DNA of 26,866 nucleotides, from positions 1 through 26,866 of the IMG/VR virus record IMGVR_UViG_3300037484_000747; one strand, written 5' to 3'. Below the pieces are notes generated by a model that was given only the letters and a program-made list of their open reading frames with translations, had not been told where the DNA came from and made no database searches. How positions within the stretch are numbered: position 1 is the first letter of the stretch; each line of letters begins with the position of its first letter. This stretch comes from a virus (taxonomy: Duplodnaviria > Caudoviricetes). A program made the position numbers and the translations under genes. This document shows positions 7,967-25,727 of this stretch, piece by piece.

Positions 7967-8376
7967 AAAAGCTTCTGTATCACAAAATTTGCAAGTTCAG
8001 GCGTCAAGCCAATGTTCGTGTCGCACTTAACCAAGTGTTCTCGTAAATCGTCCATGTCAGCGTCGTCGTCAAGGATAACAAACCTATTTGTACCCGGATG
8101 CTCAACCAACCACTGACGAATCTCACTACCGCGTGTTGCTGAATCACTCTGTAAACGGGGTGTAACGTCAATAGGTGTCTTCAATACTCCCCAAAGGAAC
8201 AAATTATGCCGTATTGCGTCTAATCCTTGCATTCGCCAAGTGCTCGATACGACGATTTCGGCGCCAGTGGCAAATGTAATTTTATTCAGTGATGCTACAC
8301 ATACCGGGTCGGCGCTGCCAAAGCGAGTCTTCCTGTTAGTCAGAACGCCATCGAAGTCAAGAAAGATAATTTTCAT
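7963..8376 (-). CDS. HAD-superfamily phosphatase (HAD_SAK_2-like)
   Basis: MKIIFLDFDGVL (DxD), IVVSSTWR, RGSEIRQWL and FVILDD motifs. Confidence 0.88.
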   Translation of the reverse strand: MKIIFLDFDGVLTNRKTRFGSADPVCVASLNKITFATGAEIVVSSTWRMQGLDAIRHNLFLWGVLKTPIDVTPRLQSDSATRGSEIRQWLVEHPGTNRFVILDDDADMDDLREHLVKCDTNIGLTPELANFVIQKLL

Positions 8377-8747
8377 TTTAATTTCCCTACTAAAAGTTGG
8401 TTTGCAACAACTACAGGAATATTAGTTTGATATCCAGTTGTAACCAAACCACGCCAACGAACCTTTCTTACAACATACTCGTTATCAAACAACGTTGGTC
8501 GTTGCAAATAAATATGAAATCGTAGATAATACCGTCGCCACGTTTTCGTACGTGTATCAAAAATCTCGGCTCGTGTCTTACGTGAACTCGTCAACCACGA
8601 ATTGCACTCAACCAAAGAACAACCATTATGGCGTTGGTATTTAAAAAGAAGTTCTTTTCGATCAGTTAACGCAAATATTTTCCAGCCAATTCGCTGCTGG
8701 AATGATTTTAACTTTTGAGGCGTTGGTGATATACTATCCATGCACAT
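8373..8747 (-). CDS. Hypothetical protein, paralog family member 1
   Basis: MC...QRIGWKIF...HN...RFHIYLQRP...TTGYQ...PVVVAN, shared with 9005-9352 and 9366-9740. Confidence 0.75.
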   Translation of the reverse strand: MCMDSISPTPQKLKSFQQRIGWKIFALTDRKELLFKYQRHNGCSLVECNSWLTSSRKTRAEIFDTRTKTWRRYYLRFHIYLQRPTLFDNEYVVRKVRWRGLVTTGYQTNIPVVVANQLLVGKLK

Positions 8748-8769: not shown

Positions 8770-9012
8770 TCATTTCACTCGCTCTAATTCAAAATCACGC
8801 AATCCATTAACTTCATACAAGCCAAAGCGTACATTATAATAACATTCCGAAGGCGGACACCATACGCGAACTATCATACCATTTGTATATCGTGGGTCAG
8901 CGCGCAACTTCACCCGGTCGCCTTCAAAGAACTTTTGAACTGCTGGTTGAGGTTGTTCGCAACCACCTAAGCAACCTAGCAATACCATCAATACAACAAT
9001 TCGCTTAATCAT
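8770..9012 (-). CDS. Predicted lipoprotein with SH3/KOW-like domain
   Basis: MIKRIVVLMVLLGCLGGC signal with lipobox; KFFEGDRVKL...YYNVRF...ELE beta-barrel pattern. Confidence 0.65.
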   Translation of the reverse strand: MIKRIVVLMVLLGCLGGCEQPQPAVQKFFEGDRVKLRADPRYTNGMIVRVWCPPSECYYNVRFGLYEVNGLRDFELERVK

Positions 9013-9352
9013 GGCTTAACACCTTTATCCGCGAGGCGACAACAACAGGACACCCACATTGGTATCCAGTAACGACAGGATATCGAAACAAAACCCTTCT
9101 AATTAGTCCGTGTCTTGGTCGTTGTAAGTAAACATGGAATCGTGGCGCATACTTCATGTTATCGCTAACCATGCGTGGCTTTGCATGTGAAACAAGCCAG
9201 CGATTCATTGGAACTTTGGCTTTACCGTTATGTTTATAAACTGCAAATAATAATGTACTGGTGGTTCGATAATTGTAGAATATCTTCCAACCATATCGCT
9301 GTCGATACGACAGAAGTTCTCTCGGTCGTTTACTTATGCTTGTCAAGCACAT
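9005..9352 (-). CDS. Hypothetical protein, paralog family member 2
   Basis: Same conserved blocks as 8373-8747. Confidence 0.75.
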   Translation of the reverse strand: MCLTSISKRPRELLSYRQRYGWKIFYNYRTTSTLLFAVYKHNGKAKVPMNRWLVSHAKPRMVSDNMKYAPRFHVYLQRPRHGLIRRVLFRYPVVTGYQCGCPVVVASRIKVLSHD

Positions 9353-9365
9353 AATATTTGTTTCC

Positions 9366-9740
9366 TTAATTCACACGCAATCGGTTTGCGACAACAATAG
9401 GTAGGTCATTTTGCCAACCTGTCGTCACCGGGCCGCGCCAATGGACTTTACAAACACGTTCGCCAGCCGAAATCATATACGCTGGTGGACGCACTAGATA
9501 AATATGGAAGCGTAACAAATATCGTTCGTTCTTATTCCGTTGTTGATTGAAAACAATCGCAGTATGCGGTTGAAAACTCCTTAACCACTTTCGCCGTGGC
9601 ACCTGGCGCGCTTGGTTATGGATAAAGAATTGAAAAAAAAGTTTCTTAGGCACAAAACCAACATCAAATATCTTCCAGCCGTATCGTTGTTTATATGACA
9701 TTTGCTGTTTAAGCTCTGTATCGATTATTTGCAAGCACAT
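9366..9740 (-). CDS. Hypothetical protein, paralog family member 3
   Basis: Same conserved blocks; AGGAGG RBS. Confidence 0.75.
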   Translation of the reverse strand: MCLQIIDTELKQQMSYKQRYGWKIFDVGFVPKKLFFQFFIHNQARQVPRRKWLRSFQPHTAIVFNQQRNKNERYLLRFHIYLVRPPAYMISAGERVCKVHWRGPVTTGWQNDLPIVVANRLRVN

Positions 9741-10316: not shown

Positions 10317-10390
10317 TGGAGTACAGGGTGGGAGTTGAACCCACTTGCTAGGATTTGCAGTCCTGTGCTTGACCGTTTAGCTACCTGTAC
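10317..10390 (-). tRNA. tRNA-Cys(GCA) with encoded CCA
   Basis: Minus strand GTACAGG/CCTGTAC acceptor stem, anticodon loop CT-GCA-AA, T arm GTGGG-TTCAACT-CCCAC, U discriminator and CCA; one C-A mismatch at the top of the anticodon stem. Confidence 0.92.
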
Positions 10391-16019: not shown

Positions 16020-16790
16020 CTATCTATTTCTAAAACTAGCTGCAATATCAGCAAGCCAAGGTGTATCTTTAAAACTATCTTTGACTTTGTTCAAATGTGC
16101 CTTGTTCCATGCGTTATGAACTGTTCTTGCTTCTGTGCCATTGGTTATCCCATCGATTGAATACTTTGAAGTATGCTCACTAACCGATCTTTCATCACCT
16201 TCACTTACAGGGAGCGGGTGGTTGCAATTCTTATCGCAACCATAAATACAAGTCGGTTTGTCACCTAACATTATTGCCATTCGTTTCCTTGCTTGCTTAC
16301 CTTCTCTGCAAGGATGGATTTTTGAAATATCGTAATTTGGATACTTCGGCTTATCTTTACCGTCTTTAACCGTATCACCTGGGATAATACATGGACTTGA
16401 CTTACACGTAAAGGTGTTATTGCAATGCTTGCAGTAGTGACTATGTGTAAGTGCTATTAACTCAGGTAACAACGGTAACTTAGTATACAATGCATTGTTT
16501 GCGTCGGTCGCGCCGTTCGCGCTCCCGAATCGCCGGTTCGCGTTCGCGCCAGATGCCCCAAATTTCGCACCGGGAGCGGTTTCTGCACCCGTTGCGCGAG
16601 CGGTCGGCGCTGACCCCTCAATCGCCGCGATGCGTCGCGAGTTGGGGCTGGAAACCGCGTTTCCGTCGATTTCGGTCGATTTCGCCGGAATTGCGCGCTC
16701 TGCGATGGCAGTATTCGCGTGGTTGGCTTCTTTCGCGGCGATGGGAGTTTTCATATTCGTTTCGTTGGCAGTCATTTCAATCGTAGCCAC
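16020..16790 (-). CDS. Hypothetical protein, Cys/His-rich C-terminal half; start uncertain
   Basis: 256 aa ORF; the N-terminal part is Ala-rich and lies in a GC-rich segment. Confidence 0.5.
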   Translation of the reverse strand: MATIEMTANETNMKTPIAAKEANHANTAIAERAIPAKSTEIDGNAVSSPNSRRIAAIEGSAPTARATGAETAPGAKFGASGANANRRFGSANGATDANNALYTKLPLLPELIALTHSHYCKHCNNTFTCKSSPCIIPGDTVKDGKDKPKYPNYDISKIHPCREGKQARKRMAIMLGDKPTCIYGCDKNCNHPLPVSEGDERSVSEHTSKYSIDGITNGTEARTVHNAWNKAHLNKVKDSFKDTPWLADIAASFRNR

Positions 16791-16812
16791 TAGCAGAGAT
16801 GCCAGTGGCTAC
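16783..16812 (-). other. Intergenic RNA hairpin (13 bp stem)
   Basis: Minus strand GTAGCCACTGGCA-TCTC-TGCTAGTGGCTAC with one G-U pair. Confidence 0.65.
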
Positions 16813-16830
16813 TGTTGACGTGACGGCTGT

Positions 16831-17277
16831 CTAGTCTAATACCATGCCGTTTGGAGCGACGTTTTCTAGCGCATCGTCGGCGTCGTTCGGTCGCGTCGGT
16901 TCGCTGGCAAGGATGGCGTCGGCATCCATCAGCGCGATTTGACTTGCAATCTCGTCATCGATGGCGCTCTCATCCTTGGCCGGTCGATACCCCGCAGGTT
17001 TGTCAGCGAACAGATAAATCGTCGGCCCACCGCGCCCGGCTACCGTAGCAACGACTTCCTGCCGTTCCAATTCTTTGACGCATTCGATGGCGTCAAGGGT
17101 TGGAAAAGCTTTTCGCAGCTTGTCGTTGAACTTCGACCAGCGAACATGTACCCCTAAGTACGGTTCGCCGGTTTTGACGTTCACTTTGTTGTGCTTCCGA
17201 AGCACCTTTATGCTTGCGATGACGTGCAACTTGACGGCACGTTCTTGATCCGCGTTTGCAAATACCGAATTTTCCAT
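16831..17277 (-). CDS. First leftward gene; possible winged-helix-like protein with acidic tail
   Basis: AAGGAG RBS; helices followed by VVATVAGRGGPTIYL hairpin; D/E-rich C-terminus. Confidence 0.65.
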   Translation of the reverse strand: MENSVFANADQERAVKLHVIASIKVLRKHNKVNVKTGEPYLGVHVRWSKFNDKLRKAFPTLDAIECVKELERQEVVATVAGRGGPTIYLFADKPAGYRPAKDESAIDDEIASQIALMDADAILASEPTRPNDADDALENVAPNGMVLD

Positions 17278-17355
17278 AACCTTTTTCTCCTTTTGCGCTA
17301 GTGCGCCTTTTTGATCGGTAGCTGCCGACTCAGGGTGGCGATATTGCCTATCGTT

Positions 17356-17390
17356 TCAAGCTGATATGCTCCAAGGAGCATACCAGATTG
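17356..17390 (-). other. Leader RNA hairpin
   Basis: Minus strand TCAATCTGGTATGCTCC-TT-GGAGCATATCAGCTTGA. Confidence 0.6.
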
Positions 17391-17623
17391 ACGCGGTAGA
17401 TTATGACTGTGGGATGCAATGCTCGATTTCATTTATTCGGTTACGGAGCAATTGTACATCGCAAAGGTCAAAGTCAGCAAGGACTAATTGTTTTTGAAAT
17501 GTCTTGATAAGTTCCTGTTTTGACATTGAATTGCCTCATTTCTGCGCGATTGCGCTATTGTGCTGGATAACGCCGGACTCGTTTGGAGCTAGGTTGCTCC
17601 GCCTAATTGTAAGTAAGTGAAAT

Positions 17624-17978
17624 TGCAGTATAGGTGCCATATAGGGAAAAATGCGCCAATTGCGCTGACCACGAAGAGAGCAACCGCGATGCCAAAGTGC
17701 TTTCGGGTGCTTCCGGGCGCTCGCTGGCAGTTCCGCACCCACTTTTGGCACAGGTTTTGCATTGCGTGTCAATTCGGCATGTCACAAGGTGGCAAAGCAG
17801 CGGCAACCGTGGCAAAACGGGTGCAATGCTGGCAAACGGTGGCAAAGTGCCTTGGAGTGCCATCGAGTGCCATCAGCGTCCCTGGCACACATCTTGCAAT
17901 TGCAATCGCCGTGCCATCGGGCATGAGCGCCCGATTCCCCGGTTGGCACACAACTTGCTAGCTGCAAATATCGTGCCA
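17624..17978. promoter_or_regulatory. Cluster of sigma-54 (RpoN) -24/-12 consensus sites
   Basis: Exact TGGCAC-N5-TTGCW at 17746-17761(+), 17883-17898(+), 17901-17916(-), 17944-17959(+) and 17963-17978(-); one mismatch at 17624-17639(-) and 17679-17694(-). Confidence 0.8.
17790..17872. repeat. Approximately 10 bp-phased TGGCAA / GTGCC repeats
   Basis: TGGCAA at 17790, 17810, 17830 and 17840; GTGCC at 17847, 17857 and 17867. Confidence 0.7.
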
Positions 17979-18099
17979 ACGCGCGGTGGAGTGATTTCAC
18001 GCCCACATTTTGTGCCCCAACCACCGCCTACCCCCACCCCCCTGGCACGCCATATGGTCCGTGAGGTAGCTGGTCGATTTTGGAAATGGTAGTCGGGGG

Positions 18100-18128
18100 T
18101 TGACTTCCTCCCTACGATGTATTATATT
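18100..18128 (+). promoter_or_regulatory. Sigma70-type promoter of the right arm
   Basis: TTGACT, 17 bp spacer, TATATT, followed by AGGAGG RBS at 18135. Confidence 0.75.
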
Positions 18129-18148
18129 GAAATTAGGAGGTAACGATT

Positions 18149-18307
18149 ATGATTGACTTTATTGAATGCCCAATATGCCATTACGAAAAGGCAGGTAAAA
18201 TATTGAATCCAGTACGAATTTGCTTTGGTACTCATACTCAATCGCCGCACTACGAATGCTATTGTGGAAAGTGTGGTCATACGTGGAAGGAACTGGTAAA
18301 TGCTTGA
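18149..18307 (+). CDS. Zinc-ribbon microprotein (52 aa), TFIIS-C-like pattern
   Basis: Hand-translated MIDFIECPICHYEKAGKILNPVRICFGTHTQSPHYECYCGKCGHTWKELVNA; strong RBS. Confidence 0.7.
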   Translation: MIDFIECPICHYEKAGKILNPVRICFGTHTQSPHYECYCGKCGHTWKELVNA

Positions 18308-19464: not shown

Positions 19465-19665
19465 GTGATTCTATGCAAGTTCTGTAAATCCGAACAACCG
19501 AACTGGCGATCGTTGCGAATTCATTGTGATATCCAGCATCATCGCGAATATGTCGCTGTTGAAGAATGGCTAGGCAAAACGGTTAAAGTGCGGTTGCAAT
19601 CACTTGAACAAGTTGCTAAAGAAGGTTTGGTTGGGCATCAGGAGATCAGGTACTTAGATCAATGA
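19465..19665 (+). CDS. C2H2-type zinc finger protein (paralog of 849-1073)
   Basis: CKFCKSE...LRIHCDIQHHREYV. Confidence 0.7.
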   Translation: MILCKFCKSEQPNWRSLRIHCDIQHHREYVAVEEWLGKTVKVRLQSLEQVAKEGLVGHQEIRYLDQ

Positions 19666-20081
19666 CACCAACCAATGAAAATATCCTTGGTGTGAATCCT
19701 GAAGATTATCGCACATGTAAACGATGCAAACGCCTGAAGCATATCGATGAATACAGACCGATGCCAGGTGGCAGGAAGTCGCCGGTTTGTTCAGGTTGTC
19801 AGGCTGAAAGGCTTAGAGAAACCAAAGTCTTAGGCAAAGATGATTCGAACCAGCGCGCGTGGATCGTCGGCGAACTGATCAAACAGTACCGATCGACCGA
19901 TAAACAAACCGATAAGATACGATGCTTGGAGGCGCTGGCAAAACTTCTACCACCAGAATCAAAGACACCTTTAGATGACCAAAATGTAATCCAAAGTCTA
20001 ATGAAGAGTTTGGAAACCAAAAAGCGGAAAGCAAGAGAAGCAAAAGAAGATGCCGGAACCAACCCAAGTCCAGAAGCCTAA
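19662..20081 (+). CDS. Putative terminase small subunit with N-terminal Zn ribbon
   Basis: Position before the TerL parts; DKIRCLEALAKLL resembles the TerS oligomerisation helix; CKRC...CSGC. Confidence 0.5.
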   Translation: MTPTNENILGVNPEDYRTCKRCKRLKHIDEYRPMPGGRKSPVCSGCQAERLRETKVLGKDDSNQRAWIVGELIKQYRSTDKQTDKIRCLEALAKLLPPESKTPLDDQNVIQSLMKSLETKKRKAREAKEDAGTNPSPEA

Positions 20082-20880
20082 CGAAGAAGGGTTCGTCCTG
20101 CTTCGGTTGCATTATTCGGCTGACCCCGAAAAGACCGAGAAGTGGGCATCGAAGGCAAAGCAGGAATATCCAACAGAAGATTGGGACCGTGAATTTGAAC
20201 TCAAACCAGTCGGGCATAAGGATTCGTATCCAGTGTTCGGTGATTACAAACGAATACTTCACGAAGACGAAAACTTGGTATGGCTACCGTCGAAAGGCAA
20301 AGTAATCTATCGCGGTTGGGATTTTGGAAAAGTCCATCCGTGCGTTGAATTTGCGCAATGCTTTGGAAACTCCAAGAACTACCTTGACGAACTATACGGC
20401 AGCAATATTTTGTTCGAACCTTTTATTCAGCAAGTTCTTGGGCATTCGAGCGTAAACTTCCCTGGCTGTACGTTTGTCGATTGGGTTGACGTTTCTGGCC
20501 GTAACGAAGACGCCTGGGGAAATTCGTCGATTCGCTCGATGCGATTGTACGGACTCCACCCACGCGGCGGGGAACAGTTGGTTGAAGACGGAATCCGGCT
20601 TATGTGCCAAGATATGGTCCGGCTCGAAGACGGGCATCCATATATTCGGCTGAACCCATTGAAGTGCGTCCAACTTGCGAATGCTTGTCGCGGTGGATTA
20701 AAACGAAACAAAAAGGGCGAGATAATCAAAGATGGTATTCATGACCATCCAGTTGACGCGGCACGATATTTGTATCAAGGTTTAGGTAGTGATACTGCAA
20801 AAGATTGGTCGAAGATCAGGGATAAACTGAAGAATCAGTATGGGAAGTTTCCGAAAGATGGACGGCAAGTACGACGATAA
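20050..20880 (+). CDS. terL: Terminase large subunit, C-terminal linker and RNase H-like nuclease domain (stand-alone gene)
   Basis: LHYSADP...WDREFE linker, IYRGWDFG, WVDVSG and HDHPVDAARY catalytic motifs; no Walker motifs. Confidence 0.88.
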   Translation: MPEPTQVQKPNEEGFVLLRLHYSADPEKTEKWASKAKQEYPTEDWDREFELKPVGHKDSYPVFGDYKRILHEDENLVWLPSKGKVIYRGWDFGKVHPCVEFAQCFGNSKNYLDELYGSNILFEPFIQQVLGHSSVNFPGCTFVDWVDVSGRNEDAWGNSSIRSMRLYGLHPRGGEQLVEDGIRLMCQDMVRLEDGHPYIRLNPLKCVQLANACRGGLKRNKKGEIIKDGIHDHPVDAARYLYQGLGSDTAKDWSKIRDKLKNQYGKFPKDGRQVRR

Positions 20881-21487: not shown

Positions 21488-22177
21488 ATGCAGTTCTCTC
21501 GAAATGAAGCACTTCAGTTTATTGCTGAAGACTTACACGAAGCGGGTAGTGAGATACTTTACTTTGCTGATCATATTTGGACACATGATCCTCATGCAAA
21601 AGGTACGAAGATAGTAAAGCTGCCGATATGGAAAACGTACATACCAAAACTTTTGACTCTATCGGCAAATCATCCTCGGCTGGCGATATACAAATCTCGG
21701 CAGATGATGGTCACGTGGCTTATTTGTATAGTATGTCTTTGGGAAGCGTTGTTCAAACCGGGAAGCCATATCGCGCTTATCTCGATGAAAGAGGAAGACG
21801 CGGGGAAGCTGATCGGGCGAATGAAATTAATGTTCGAGCATTTGCCTGCACATTGGTTGTTGGGCCTGCCGGAACCGAAGTATTACAGGGGTAAAAAGGG
21901 AATCATTTTGCGAATGGTCGTGCCACACTTCAATGGCGAACCCGAAAGTGTAATTCAGGCATATCCACAAAACGGAAACCCTGGACGATCTGAAACCTTA
22001 TCATTGTGTTATTGGGATGAAGTAGGAGAATGTGACGACGCCGAAGCGAGAAACATGTACGCTGCCTTGAGACCAACCTTGGAAAACGGCGGACGGTTGA
22101 TTATGAGTTCAACTCCGCCGCGTTCTGAAGAACATTTTTGGGAAGCGTTTTGTCGCGGTGATTATTTTGGTGGATAA
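21488..22177 (+). CDS. terL: Terminase large subunit, N-terminal ATPase domain (stand-alone gene)
   Basis: AIYKSRQMMVTW (Walker A variant), GRS, LCYWDEV (Walker B with catalytic E) and IMSSTP (motif C); ends before the nuclease domain. Confidence 0.88.
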   Translation: MQFSRNEALQFIAEDLHEAGSEILYFADHIWTHDPHAKGTKIVKLPIWKTYIPKLLTLSANHPRLAIYKSRQMMVTWLICIVCLWEALFKPGSHIALISMKEEDAGKLIGRMKLMFEHLPAHWLLGLPEPKYYRGKKGIILRMVVPHFNGEPESVIQAYPQNGNPGRSETLSLCYWDEVGECDDAEARNMYAALRPTLENGGRLIMSSTPPRSEEHFWEAFCRGDYFGG

Positions 22178-23153: not shown

Positions 23154-23551
23154 GATTACTTTCTGATGACGCTCTTGCTACGCTTACCATCTGGACTGAA
23201 GCCCAAGGCGAATCGTTTGAAGGCAAAGTAGCCGTTGGTGAAGTCATTCGCGAACGTATGCGTAGAAAGTATGCAAGTGATGGAACAGTTGCCGGGACTG
23301 TTGCTCGGCGGTATCAGTTCAGCGCATGGAATGACGACCATCAAGATAATGCACTTTTGATCCGCGCACTCAAATTGGATTGGGGCGATGTAGGTATACC
23401 AGAATGCCAACGTGCCTGGGAGAAATCTGCAACTACAAATTACGTTTCTAAAGCGGTTTTGTACTGCAACTTAGCCGTTGCACAACCCGATTGGGCAAAA
23501 CCAGAAAAGCTTGTCACCAAAATAGAACATCATTCATTTTTTAGTGATTAA
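23150..23551 (+). CDS. SleB/Hydrolase_2-family cell wall hydrolase (endolysin)
   Basis: TIWTEAQGESFEGKVAVGEVIRER (catalytic Glu), YQFSAWN, PDWA and IEHHSFF. Confidence 0.88.
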   Translation: MRLLSDDALATLTIWTEAQGESFEGKVAVGEVIRERMRRKYASDGTVAGTVARRYQFSAWNDDHQDNALLIRALKLDWGDVGIPECQRAWEKSATTNYVSKAVLYCNLAVAQPDWAKPEKLVTKIEHHSFFSD

Positions 23552-23552
23552 A

Positions 23553-25727
23553 ATGGCAGAAGAACAATTAAATACGTCGCCGTCAGCACCGCAAGCAGAA
23601 TCATCGGACGAATTCGATGATACTGTCAAAGGCCCGATCAGCGGCGTCGATGCCGTAGACTTTGTTAATTTCGCATCTGATCCTGATGTAGTCGCTGATA
23701 TCAAGAAGACGATTTTCCCGCAGATCAAAAAAGCGCGGTCGAATCGAAATTCAAAGCTTTCTGACGATTGGGATAGATATCGTGACGTTTACAATCAGCG
23801 CAGAACGATCTCGTTTTATGAAGGCAGATCGCGGTTGTTTCTCGGCGCAATACGGAAGGCAGTAGATACGCTAACGCGGATTGCGAAAGATTCAATGCTT
23901 GCCGACCCGTATGTTAGTGTTGAAACGGACGTAGAGCGTTGGCGTGACGTTGGTGTGCATTTTATCAAATACTTGCTTGAGAATCAAGGACAGATTCGTC
24001 CGAAGCTTTCGATGTTCTTGCGCCAACTCTATCAAATTGGCACATCGTGCATGAAGTTTGGTTGGAAAACATCGTATCGGAATATCACGTATCGCGAAAA
24101 AGGTGAACTTGGACTAGAAATCAAAAAGCGCAAGGCGTATGATCATTACGGCCCAACGCTTGACGTTATCGATATGCGGCATGTTTATGTTTGGCCCGAA
24201 GTCGCTACCGATTACAATGGATTACAGATTGTTTTTGAAGATTCCGTGACAACGATTGCCACTCTTCGGCGCAAAGTGAAGGAAGGTTGGTACGAACCTG
24301 AAACTGTTGATAAAGTAATACAAAAGCGAAGTAGTGAAATTGCGCAGGATAATAAATCGAGAAGCCATGCTGTTAAAGAAGGTATGGTTGATGGCGAACT
24401 CGAACAAGGCGAACTTGATATCACTGAAGCGTGGGTACGCTACCGATTGCCTGACGACGAAGGTGATTCTGAATGCTTGCCGTGGGTGTGGTTGACGTTC
24501 GCTGGTGAAGAAATTCTTCGGGTACAAGAAAATCCGTGGTGGTTTCAAGCACCGCCTTACCTTTTCGGTGCAATCTTCCGTGAACATGATTACTTTTATG
24601 GGCATGGTTTGATTGAAGCTACCGAAATGTGGCAGTATATGCTGAATGATATCGTCAACCAGACAATGGATTGCGGTACGTATGCATTGAACCCGATTAC
24701 AATTATGGACCCCGCTGCTGTTGACGATCCTGATATGTATCAGATCGAGCCGATGGCGAAATGGATGATTGCACCTGATGCCGTGAGTTTTGAACGCCCA
24801 CCTGCAAATATGACTCAAGAAGGTTTGGGGATGGTGCGGTTCTTGCTGAACATTGTCCAAGAAGCGACAGATGCAACGGCAATTGTCCAAGGAACACCGC
24901 GCGAAGGTATGGGACCGGCTGCGGGAACTGCAACTGGCATATCGCAACTTATGGCGTCATCGAGCGCGGCGATTGTCGATCAAGTTGAAGAACTCGAAGC
25001 ACAAGTGTTTACGCCATTGCTGAAAATGGTCGAAATTGCGGCCCATCAGTTTATGGACGAGAAGATGGTTATTCGTCTTGAAGGGCCAGACGCAGCGGTT
25101 ATTACGCAGCGAATCATCGAACCAAGTGATTTGATTTTATCGACGGACGTTCGCTGGATTGCGAGCCGCCGATTGCGCGAGAAGCTTGCAAAAGGGCAGC
25201 AATATCTCAATATGCTGAACATTGCGCTTGGTGTTGATCCTCAAATGACGTTACAGCAAGGGTTTATGATTGATTTGAAGTACCTGATCAAAGGCGCAGC
25301 AATTTCAATCGGTGCTGATGATGCAGATAAGATTATCAAAGACGTGACGCAGGGTTTGCCTGGAATTCCCGCCGAACTCGAATACGAACTAGCTATTTCG
25401 GGTCGATCGGTTGTCGCCTCGCCGTTGGAATCGGTTGAAGATCATGTGCGGAAAATCCAGATTTTGATGCGTTTGCCGTTGCCGCAAACCGAATACGCGC
25501 AGATAAAGTTGAAAGAATTGATTGCAAGTCATTATGCGGTATTGAATCAGGTTCAAGCACAAATGATGGCGCAGCAAGCAAATGGAACTCCGGGTGGAGC
25601 GCAACGTGGCCCTGTCGGTGGTCAAATGATGGGTGGCGGAACGCCACTTCGTCCGCAAGAGCAACCGCAGAACGCCGGGCCTGGCGATGCGTTGAAAGGA
25701 TTGCTAAGTCAAATTGGGGGAGCGTAA
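23553..25727 (+). CDS. Portal protein (large, P22-like)
   Basis: About 724 aa downstream of terminase; GTSCMKFGW, YFYGHGLIE, TATGISQL and Q/G-rich tail typical of podovirus-type portals. Confidence 0.85.
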   Translation: MAEEQLNTSPSAPQAESSDEFDDTVKGPISGVDAVDFVNFASDPDVVADIKKTIFPQIKKARSNRNSKLSDDWDRYRDVYNQRRTISFYEGRSRLFLGAIRKAVDTLTRIAKDSMLADPYVSVETDVERWRDVGVHFIKYLLENQGQIRPKLSMFLRQLYQIGTSCMKFGWKTSYRNITYREKGELGLEIKKRKAYDHYGPTLDVIDMRHVYVWPEVATDYNGLQIVFEDSVTTIATLRRKVKEGWYEPETVDKVIQKRSSEIAQDNKSRSHAVKEGMVDGELEQGELDITEAWVRYRLPDDEGDSECLPWVWLTFAGEEILRVQENPWWFQAPPYLFGAIFREHDYFYGHGLIEATEMWQYMLNDIVNQTMDCGTYALNPITIMDPAAVDDPDMYQIEPMAKWMIAPDAVSFERPPANMTQEGLGMVRFLLNIVQEATDATAIVQGTPREGMGPAAGTATGISQLMASSSAAIVDQVEELEAQVFTPLLKMVEIAAHQFMDEKMVIRLEGPDAAVITQRIIEPSDLILSTDVRWIASRRLREKLAKGQQYLNMLNIALGVDPQMTLQQGFMIDLKYLIKGAAISIGADDADKIIKDVTQGLPGIPAELEYELAISGRSVVASPLESVEDHVRKIQILMRLPLPQTEYAQIKLKELIASHYAVLNQVQAQMMAQQANGTPGGAQRGPVGGQMMGGGTPLRPQEQPQNAGPGDALKGLLSQIGGA

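Follow-up and report, generated by a model that had tools for sequence, protein, structure and literature searches.

The window analysed here is a whole virus contig of 26.9 kb, in which two divergent gene arms are separated by a gap of 871 bp. On either side, the nearest called genes stop at 17277 and begin at 18149, and among the ORFs scanned as genes none lies within or across the gap (17278-18148). According to Pfam and PHROG profile searches, the leftward (early) arm consists of small genes, including those for an exonuclease, a glutamine amidotransferase, and an amidoligase, and the rightward (packaging) arm carries terminase, lysis genes, and a portal of the SU10 type. The first gene of the early arm (16831-17277, minus strand) encodes a predicted winged-helix protein of 148 amino acids, which has 21 homologues (59-100% identity) and no family in Pfam, PHROG, or NCBIfam; its structure model has a pLDDT of 76, with weak matches to winged-helix folds (best E value of 0.0075). 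The ATPase part of the terminase large subunit (21488-22177, plus strand; phrog_2, E value of 1.7e-14) is oriented away from the gap, followed by the SU10-type portal gene (23544-25727, plus strand; PF23899, E value of 1e-20). The large terminase looks split, with its ATPase part downstream of a 276-aa gene (20050-20880) and two genes between them. This 276-aa gene, the motifs of which we take to resemble the terminase nuclease part, is present in six viral loci (at 59-87%) and had no family match in the profile search. An ORF at 19662-20081 was considered as the small terminase and rejected, as it gave no alignment to gp6 of phiEco32, and it is left unassigned. The window also contains three look-alike small ORFs (8373-8747, 9005-9352, and 9366-9740), which start with MC, have GWKIF and RFH.YL.RP in common, and belong to no Pfam or PHROG family, and a tRNA-Cys (GCA) in the early arm at 10317-10390, beyond which an Rfam scan of the window gave no structured RNA above the cut-off.

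The gap holds an array of sigma-54 (RpoN)-type sites. Five exact TGGCAC-N5-TTGCW sites (17746+, 17883+, 17901-, 17944+, and 17963-) and two with one mismatch (17624- and 17679-), all listed in an earlier note made from the same DNA, were confirmed at their positions. Their enrichment was also borne out: the whole window has nine matches with at most one mismatch where 1.17 are expected, and none of 100 shuffles reached nine, while the composition of the 871-bp gap predicts 0.0008 exact sites there, vs. the five present. The two one-mismatch sites both point leftward. The first (17679-17694, minus strand) is a predicted promoter of the early arm with a predicted start near 17668, and the second (17624-17639, minus strand) has an exact counterpart in the related locus L162 only. 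An exact site facing right (17746-17761, plus strand) lies within a helically phased segment described below. The other four of the five exact sites form two head-to-head pairs, a pairing absent from the earlier note, with 2 nt separating the -12 boxes in pair 1 (17883-17916; 17883+ and 17901-) and 3 nt in pair 2 (17944-17978; 17944+ and 17963-). Two weaker copies proposed at 17810+ and 18043+ are better explained otherwise; 17810+ falls in a phased GGCAA repeat as one of its units, and 18043+ belongs to a separate conserved block, in which TGGCAC is kept in four of six loci and never with a -12 box. A hairpin or cruciform was rejected as well, the pair spacers being no more complementary than shuffled ones (1.56 vs. 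1.71 of 5), and the fold of 17870-17990 is only mildly stable (z of -2.1, with 7 of 200 shuffles equally good). No DnaA box with at most one mismatch to the consensus was found in 17278-18148.

Eight loci of the family cover the gap, namely the window, L123, L124, L162, and L164-L167. We excluded L163 and L126, which do not reach the site, L125, which is the same contig as L123, L128 and L129, which are too short, and L127, a more distant relative (61% identity) without the array and with no exact site in 29.9 kb. The leftward site corresponding to 17679 was found with at most one mismatch in all eight loci, and it faces the early genes. It lies upstream of the 148-aa gene in all seven loci having both, ~400 nt away in the window, and in L165 it ends 26 nt ahead of the start codon of the first early gene, with GGTGA in the predicted leader. 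The totals per locus (at most one mismatch) are 7, 7, 4, 3, 2, 2, 1, and 1, three of the loci being incomplete. L162 and L123 have an equivalent of 17746+ at an unchanged offset (51-52 bp), which L164, L166, L167, and L124 lack. Head-to-head pairs are missing in most relatives, while L162 has one at the same distance from a conserved C-run block as pair 2 of the window; L124 and L165 have no site near that block except the promoter-like leftward one. The array is not a uniform decoy, since a conserved leftward site stands against variable remaining sites.

The helically phased segment (17695-17846), which is predicted to be an enhancer or a DNA-wrapping arm, adjoins the leftward site. It consists of GCTTNC-like units at 17699, 17709, and 17719, TGTCA at 17767 and 17780, and six GGCAA/TGCAA units at 17791-17845. 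In 7/7 loci, AA/TT in this ~150-bp segment recurs with a period of 10.2-10.5 bp, matched by none of 300 shuffles in each, and these seven loci are not independent because of their common ancestry. The 150 bp to the right of 17694 have the strongest 10-bp phasing of the contig (rank 1 of 1069 windows). CAA-core units occur at constant distances from the leftward site (~74-77 and 96-147 bp) in seven of eight loci, and the segment, the length of which varies in ~10-bp steps, is locked to the leftward site and not to the C-run block. A second strong 10-bp AA/TT phasing (rank 2 of 1069) was observed at 16551-16725, in the alanine-rich 5' part of the ORF at 16020-16790, and an inverted repeat at 16768-16827 flanks this stretch.

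In the available text of two papers, activator sites are placed 80-150 bp upstream of sigma-54 promoters, possibly as tandem repeats (PMC7910581), or 100-150 bp upstream (PMC7057263), and activator action at such promoters requires bent DNA (PMC7910581, PMC7057263). No match to the IHF consensus was found in the phased segment of the window, and a one-mismatch match was found in two of the eight loci, at different places. An IHF site is not obligatory for an enhancer-type sigma-54 promoter, because curved DNA can substitute for it. The earlier note was correct that the right arm has good sigma-70 promoters (18100 and 19404); the one at 18100-18128 (plus strand, 10/12) heads the packaging arm, and a 9-10/12 match is found at the same place in L162, L164, L165, L123, and L124. 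This does not apply to the left arm, since no minus-strand sigma-70 match of at least 9/12 was found at its head in 17278-18148, and this absence supports a working sigma-54 promoter there. Judging from these sequence features, 17679 is rather probably a working enhancer-type sigma-54 promoter of the early arm. The phased segment may just as well serve for the wrapping of DNA by a phage protein or gyrase, and the predicted winged-helix protein of 148 amino acids is a possible candidate for binding the phased repeats. As the earlier note had stated, no activator is visible; there was none among the 68 ORFs scanned in the window, which is a fragment, and no sigma-54 gene either. Within the predicted early-transcript leader, at 17348-17399, lies a 25-bp inverted repeat (80% complementary).

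The identity of the binder was addressed with 331 viral loci, which fall into 152 clusters. Beyond the sites that had been searched for, these clusters hold 450 extra sites with the N5 spacer vs. 4 with N4 and 11 with N6. At positions not used in the search, a pyrimidine precedes TGG in 77% and G/A follows CAC in 94% of 751 sites, so that the viral sites match the published sigma-54 consensus TGGCACG-N4-TTGC(T/A) (PMC7910581, in its available text) at the unsearched positions also. A scan for head-to-head pairs gave 122 viral loci with an estimated ~150 stretches, vs. none when the same pair was searched with six-base (N6) spacers. The gap was 1-5 nt in 145 of the 150 pairs counted, including the two of the window. 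Tandem pairs were found in ~190 stretches and back-to-back pairs, searched with a looser pattern, in 90; preferred spacings in the viral clusters are 17-21 bp for head-to-head and 25-28 bp for tandem sites, and other viral arrays have up to 13 sites in 400 bp. The pairs are not a general bacterial feature, because the prokaryote genomes of GTDB (596 Gb) gave only 31 stretches, the gaps of which are distributed differently (12 nt in 13 of them) and which include several perfect hairpins. Genomes of Zwartia and related betaproteobacteria repeatedly carry a head-to-head pair with a gap of 11-12 nt (L132, L133, L138, L139, L142, L145, L146, L148, L150, L151, L154, L156, and L160), and a six-site array with a terminase match (L157, 2133-2259) lies on a contig of 2.3 kb that was binned with Gemmatimonadota and probably comes from a phage.

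The sigma-54 DNA-binding domain (PF04552) was found in none of 50 array-phage records, including 24 near-complete ones, and the activator domain (PF00158) gave only two partial matches in the 50 records. The cultured phages with arrays infect Pseudomonas aeruginosa and Vibrio, both of which possess rpoN. The earlier proposal that host sigma-54 is the binder is thus well supported by the strict spacing, the bases at unsearched positions, the absence of a phage sigma-54 gene from these records, and the non-complementary spacers, and we consider it very probable from the sites themselves that sigma-54 binds the array.

To the right of the pairs, a C-run block (18011-18094) is conserved in 6/6 aligned loci, next to the sigma-70 match at 18100, and is predicted to be a genome end or packaging site. 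Its distance from the conserved leftward site is 132 to 425 bp across the family. The gap of the window has the layout of a short terminal repeat, lying between divergent arms and upstream of terminase with C/G runs. Because LUZ24 and phiEco32 share this layout and carry terminal repeats rich in C/G runs in the corresponding gap, a terminus is predicted near the C-run block, and on this comparison the block at 18011-18094 is probably the genome terminus. Summed read depth is higher at 17838-18004; we did not use it as evidence of an end, as it is a sum over several contigs, and contigs cannot show ends.

The polarity of terminase was examined in the 111 clusters with long loci, using a terminase profile built from the loci of the present analysis. 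A large terminase was found in the locus in 32 clusters, oriented away from the array in 32/32, and no match was found in the locus of the other 79. Eleven new clusters from a three-site scan gave no large-terminase match with our own profile (0/11) and one later by Pfam. The Pfam scan, which covered 88 of 135 listed neighbouring ORFs, added three terminases facing away (L178, L288, and L449) and a small-terminase gene oriented towards the array in L170. Many arrays adjoin early-type genes (gp88-like, SAM lyase, ArdC, and SprT) or structural genes. The sites themselves have no orientation bias, with 68 facing terminase and 83 facing away. On the terminase side, a G- or C-run (at least 8 in 10) occurs within 200 bp in 14/32, vs. 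4/32 on the far side. Contig ends lie within 250 bp of the array in 13 of 111 clusters vs. 1-9 in other 250-bp bins, a weak excess, because repeats break assemblies. DnaA-box matches were seen in or beside the sigma-54 arrays of a large marine cluster (L020, 75-94; L012, near 1640-1680).

Packaging in lambda and P22 proceeds from the cut into the terminase genes. If this rule applies here, the array side would be packaged last and enter the cell first. Two groups of cultured phages carry terminal sites. In phage K5, 6 of 14 distinct sites lie in the 1,182-bp terminal repeat and three more at the start of the early block; according to the available text of PMC3652863, run-off sequencing has located the equivalent repeat in PaP1. 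In the T5-like vibriophage VspSw_1, seven of eight sites lie in 3.2 kb of the pre-early region, upstream of A2/A1. A second Pakpunavirus cluster of sigma-54 sites is located at the inner border of the early block beside short direct repeats (L130, 15149-15334; K5, 80267-80452), and 121 Pseudomonas phage records match this region of K5. LUZ24, phiEco32, nickie, Barton, Kokobel2, and PSA28 have sigma-54 sites at background only, and the array is dispensable in related designs, as LUZ24, phiEco32, L127, and others do without it. Among cultured relatives there was no DNA match to the array, the best portal match was 26%, and the terminase of L007 had none.

We give about an even chance to a model in which the genome end that enters first is loaded with host sigma-54 polymerase, one site firing there and the extra sites holding parked enzyme. 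Sigma-54 polymerase contacts the two boxes and remains closed as long as no activator acts (PMC7057263), and E. coli has 135 high-stringency sigma-54 sites that are mostly bound but silent (PMC4591121), as far as the available texts of these papers go. By this model, host sigma-54 holoenzyme would bind the entering DNA end, and the early genes would be transcribed from the conserved leftward site upon binding of an activator to the phased repeats. The variable extra sites, which presumably do not fire, would park silent polymerase as a landing pad that works in either orientation. Each head-to-head pair would be one two-way docking slot rather than two promoters, since polymerase bound at either site would lie over the partner's -12 box; the predicted start of each paired site falls within the partner site. 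A location of the pairs within a short terminal repeat would place them at both genome ends. The role of the parked enzyme is the weakest step, and it may feed the early promoter or shield or hold the DNA end. Among the three options of the earlier note, the organisation of the DNA end and activator-dependent early transcription give the best fit, and the interpretation of that note is partly supported overall. It is possible, and distinctly more speculative, that many unrelated phages use activator-locked sigma-54 polymerase as a structural part, with silent holoenzymes capping the DNA end or ratcheting the genome in and the same pool firing the early arm upon a host signal; such a cap would guard against host nucleases and end sensors.

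The headline of the earlier note was a decoy. In a fuller form of this reading, replicated copies of the array would drain host sigma-54 polymerase and damp psp, nitrogen, or motility genes, the array position merely reflecting available non-coding space. Relatives do differ freely in site number (from 1 to 7), arrays elsewhere reach 13 sites within 400 bp, the sites lack orientation bias, and seven sites in many genome copies could compete with the 135 sites of E. coli (PMC4591121, from its available text). The decoy fits less well, however, because a sponge needs no fixed position upstream of terminase, and relatives keep as few as one site, the sole site always kept being the promoter-like leftward one with the phased segment. 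In addition, pairs 1-5 nt apart probably cannot be loaded together, which would waste the capacity of a sponge, and a phage needing sigma-54 for its early genes gains by concentrating it, not by removing it. We therefore hold the decoy to be unlikely. A signal for packaging or for the terminal repeat, acting late, in which a polymerase stalled by the cut marks the terminase stop or the duplication of the repeat, would agree with the terminase orientation in 32/32 and with the G- or C-runs within tens of bases of which arrays often end (14/32 vs. 4/32). It is quite unlikely in our judgement, given that the distance from the conserved site to the block is so variable (132-425 bp), that the block of L124 and L165 has only the promoter-like site near it, and that most arrays have no nearby terminase match.

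Two further explanations change what the sites do or what binds them, and we rate each of them as very improbable. In a plain cluster of working promoters, every site would fire and the pairs would be two-way promoters for both arms, on the precedent of the single promoters of YuA. This agrees with the use of sigma-54-like promoters by YuA (PMC10914365, in its available text) and with a pair just upstream of capsid, protease, or sheath genes in L019, L050, and L017, whereas the start predicted for each paired site lies inside its partner, the right arm is headed by a conserved sigma-70 match of its own, and most relatives have no pairs. As an observation on its own, L019, L050, and L017 (at 3001) have single head-to-head pairs immediately upstream of major capsid, head protease, and tail sheath genes, with possible use as late promoters. 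Alternatively, a phage protein (a small terminase, an initiator, or the 148-aa winged-helix protein) and not sigma-54 would bind the motif; the early arm begins, beside the array, with the predicted winged-helix gene, and the preferred spacings (17-21 and 25-28 bp) are tighter than whole polymerases require. Against such a binder, one 16-bp consensus is shared by 152 clusters with small terminases of differing families (phrog_3802, 309, and 83), the motif fits the sigma-54 consensus given in the available text of PMC7910581, unsearched positions included, and no RpoN-like gene was found in 50 records. 

Early phage transcription is usually assumed to depend on sigma-70. A conserved enhancer-type sigma-54 promoter heading the early arm would couple the onset of infection to a signalling protein of the host. 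Tight sigma-54 arrays occur in more than 150 viral clusters and are rare in host chromosomes, pointing to an undescribed use of a host transcription complex at phage ends, and the pattern is accessible in cultured Pakpunavirus phages (K5 and PAK_P1) and in the T5-like vibriophage, all of which carry sites in their terminal regions. In literature other than subscription papers and supplements, we found no paper on arrays of sigma-54 sites at phage ends. What is new here is that, in a single family, a conserved module of predicted promoter and phased segment can be told apart from a variable cluster of terminal sites; the rules of spacing and the orientation of terminase over many lineages are new as well.

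The leftward site and its phased segment resemble enhancer-dependent bacterial promoters of the glnAp2/NtrC type and the tandem-repeat Nla28 promoters of Myxococcus (PMC7910581, as far as its available text describes the latter) in the -24/-12 consensus with exact spacing, in the repeats 96-147 bp upstream, which are candidate activator sites, and in the phased bendable DNA between them. They differ from these promoters in lying in a phage, in having no IHF consensus, in being surrounded by extra sites in both orientations, and in the absence of an activator from the window. The LUZ24/phiEco32 podoviruses share the divergent arms, the amidoligase and glutamine amidotransferase genes, the SU10-type portal, the terminase oriented away, and the C/G runs at terminal repeats; unlike the window, they have no sigma-54 sites near their ends, and the annotated early promoters of LUZ24 are of the sigma-70 type. 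In T5, the injection-stop region in the terminal repeat carries eight DnaA boxes with a proposed role in DNA entry (10.1101/866236), and, as far as the available part of this preprint describes it, it shares with the window, as predicted for the latter, a cluster of boxes for a host protein in the first-entering terminal DNA. The host protein is a different one, and the gap of the window has no DnaA box; the T5 model is itself a proposal, and sigma-54 is unmentioned in that part of the preprint.

The sigma-54 promoters of phage YuA, located in its virion-gene region, are a further point of reference. The available texts describe a Bdellovibrio phage annotated with a sigma-54-type regulator (PMC3391216) and the use of sigma-54-like promoters by the Pseudomonas phage YuA (PMC10914365). 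YuA shares with the phage of the window, as we read it, the lytic-phage use of host sigma-54, but it does so with single promoters, whereas the window has a cluster at a predicted terminus that heads the early arm.
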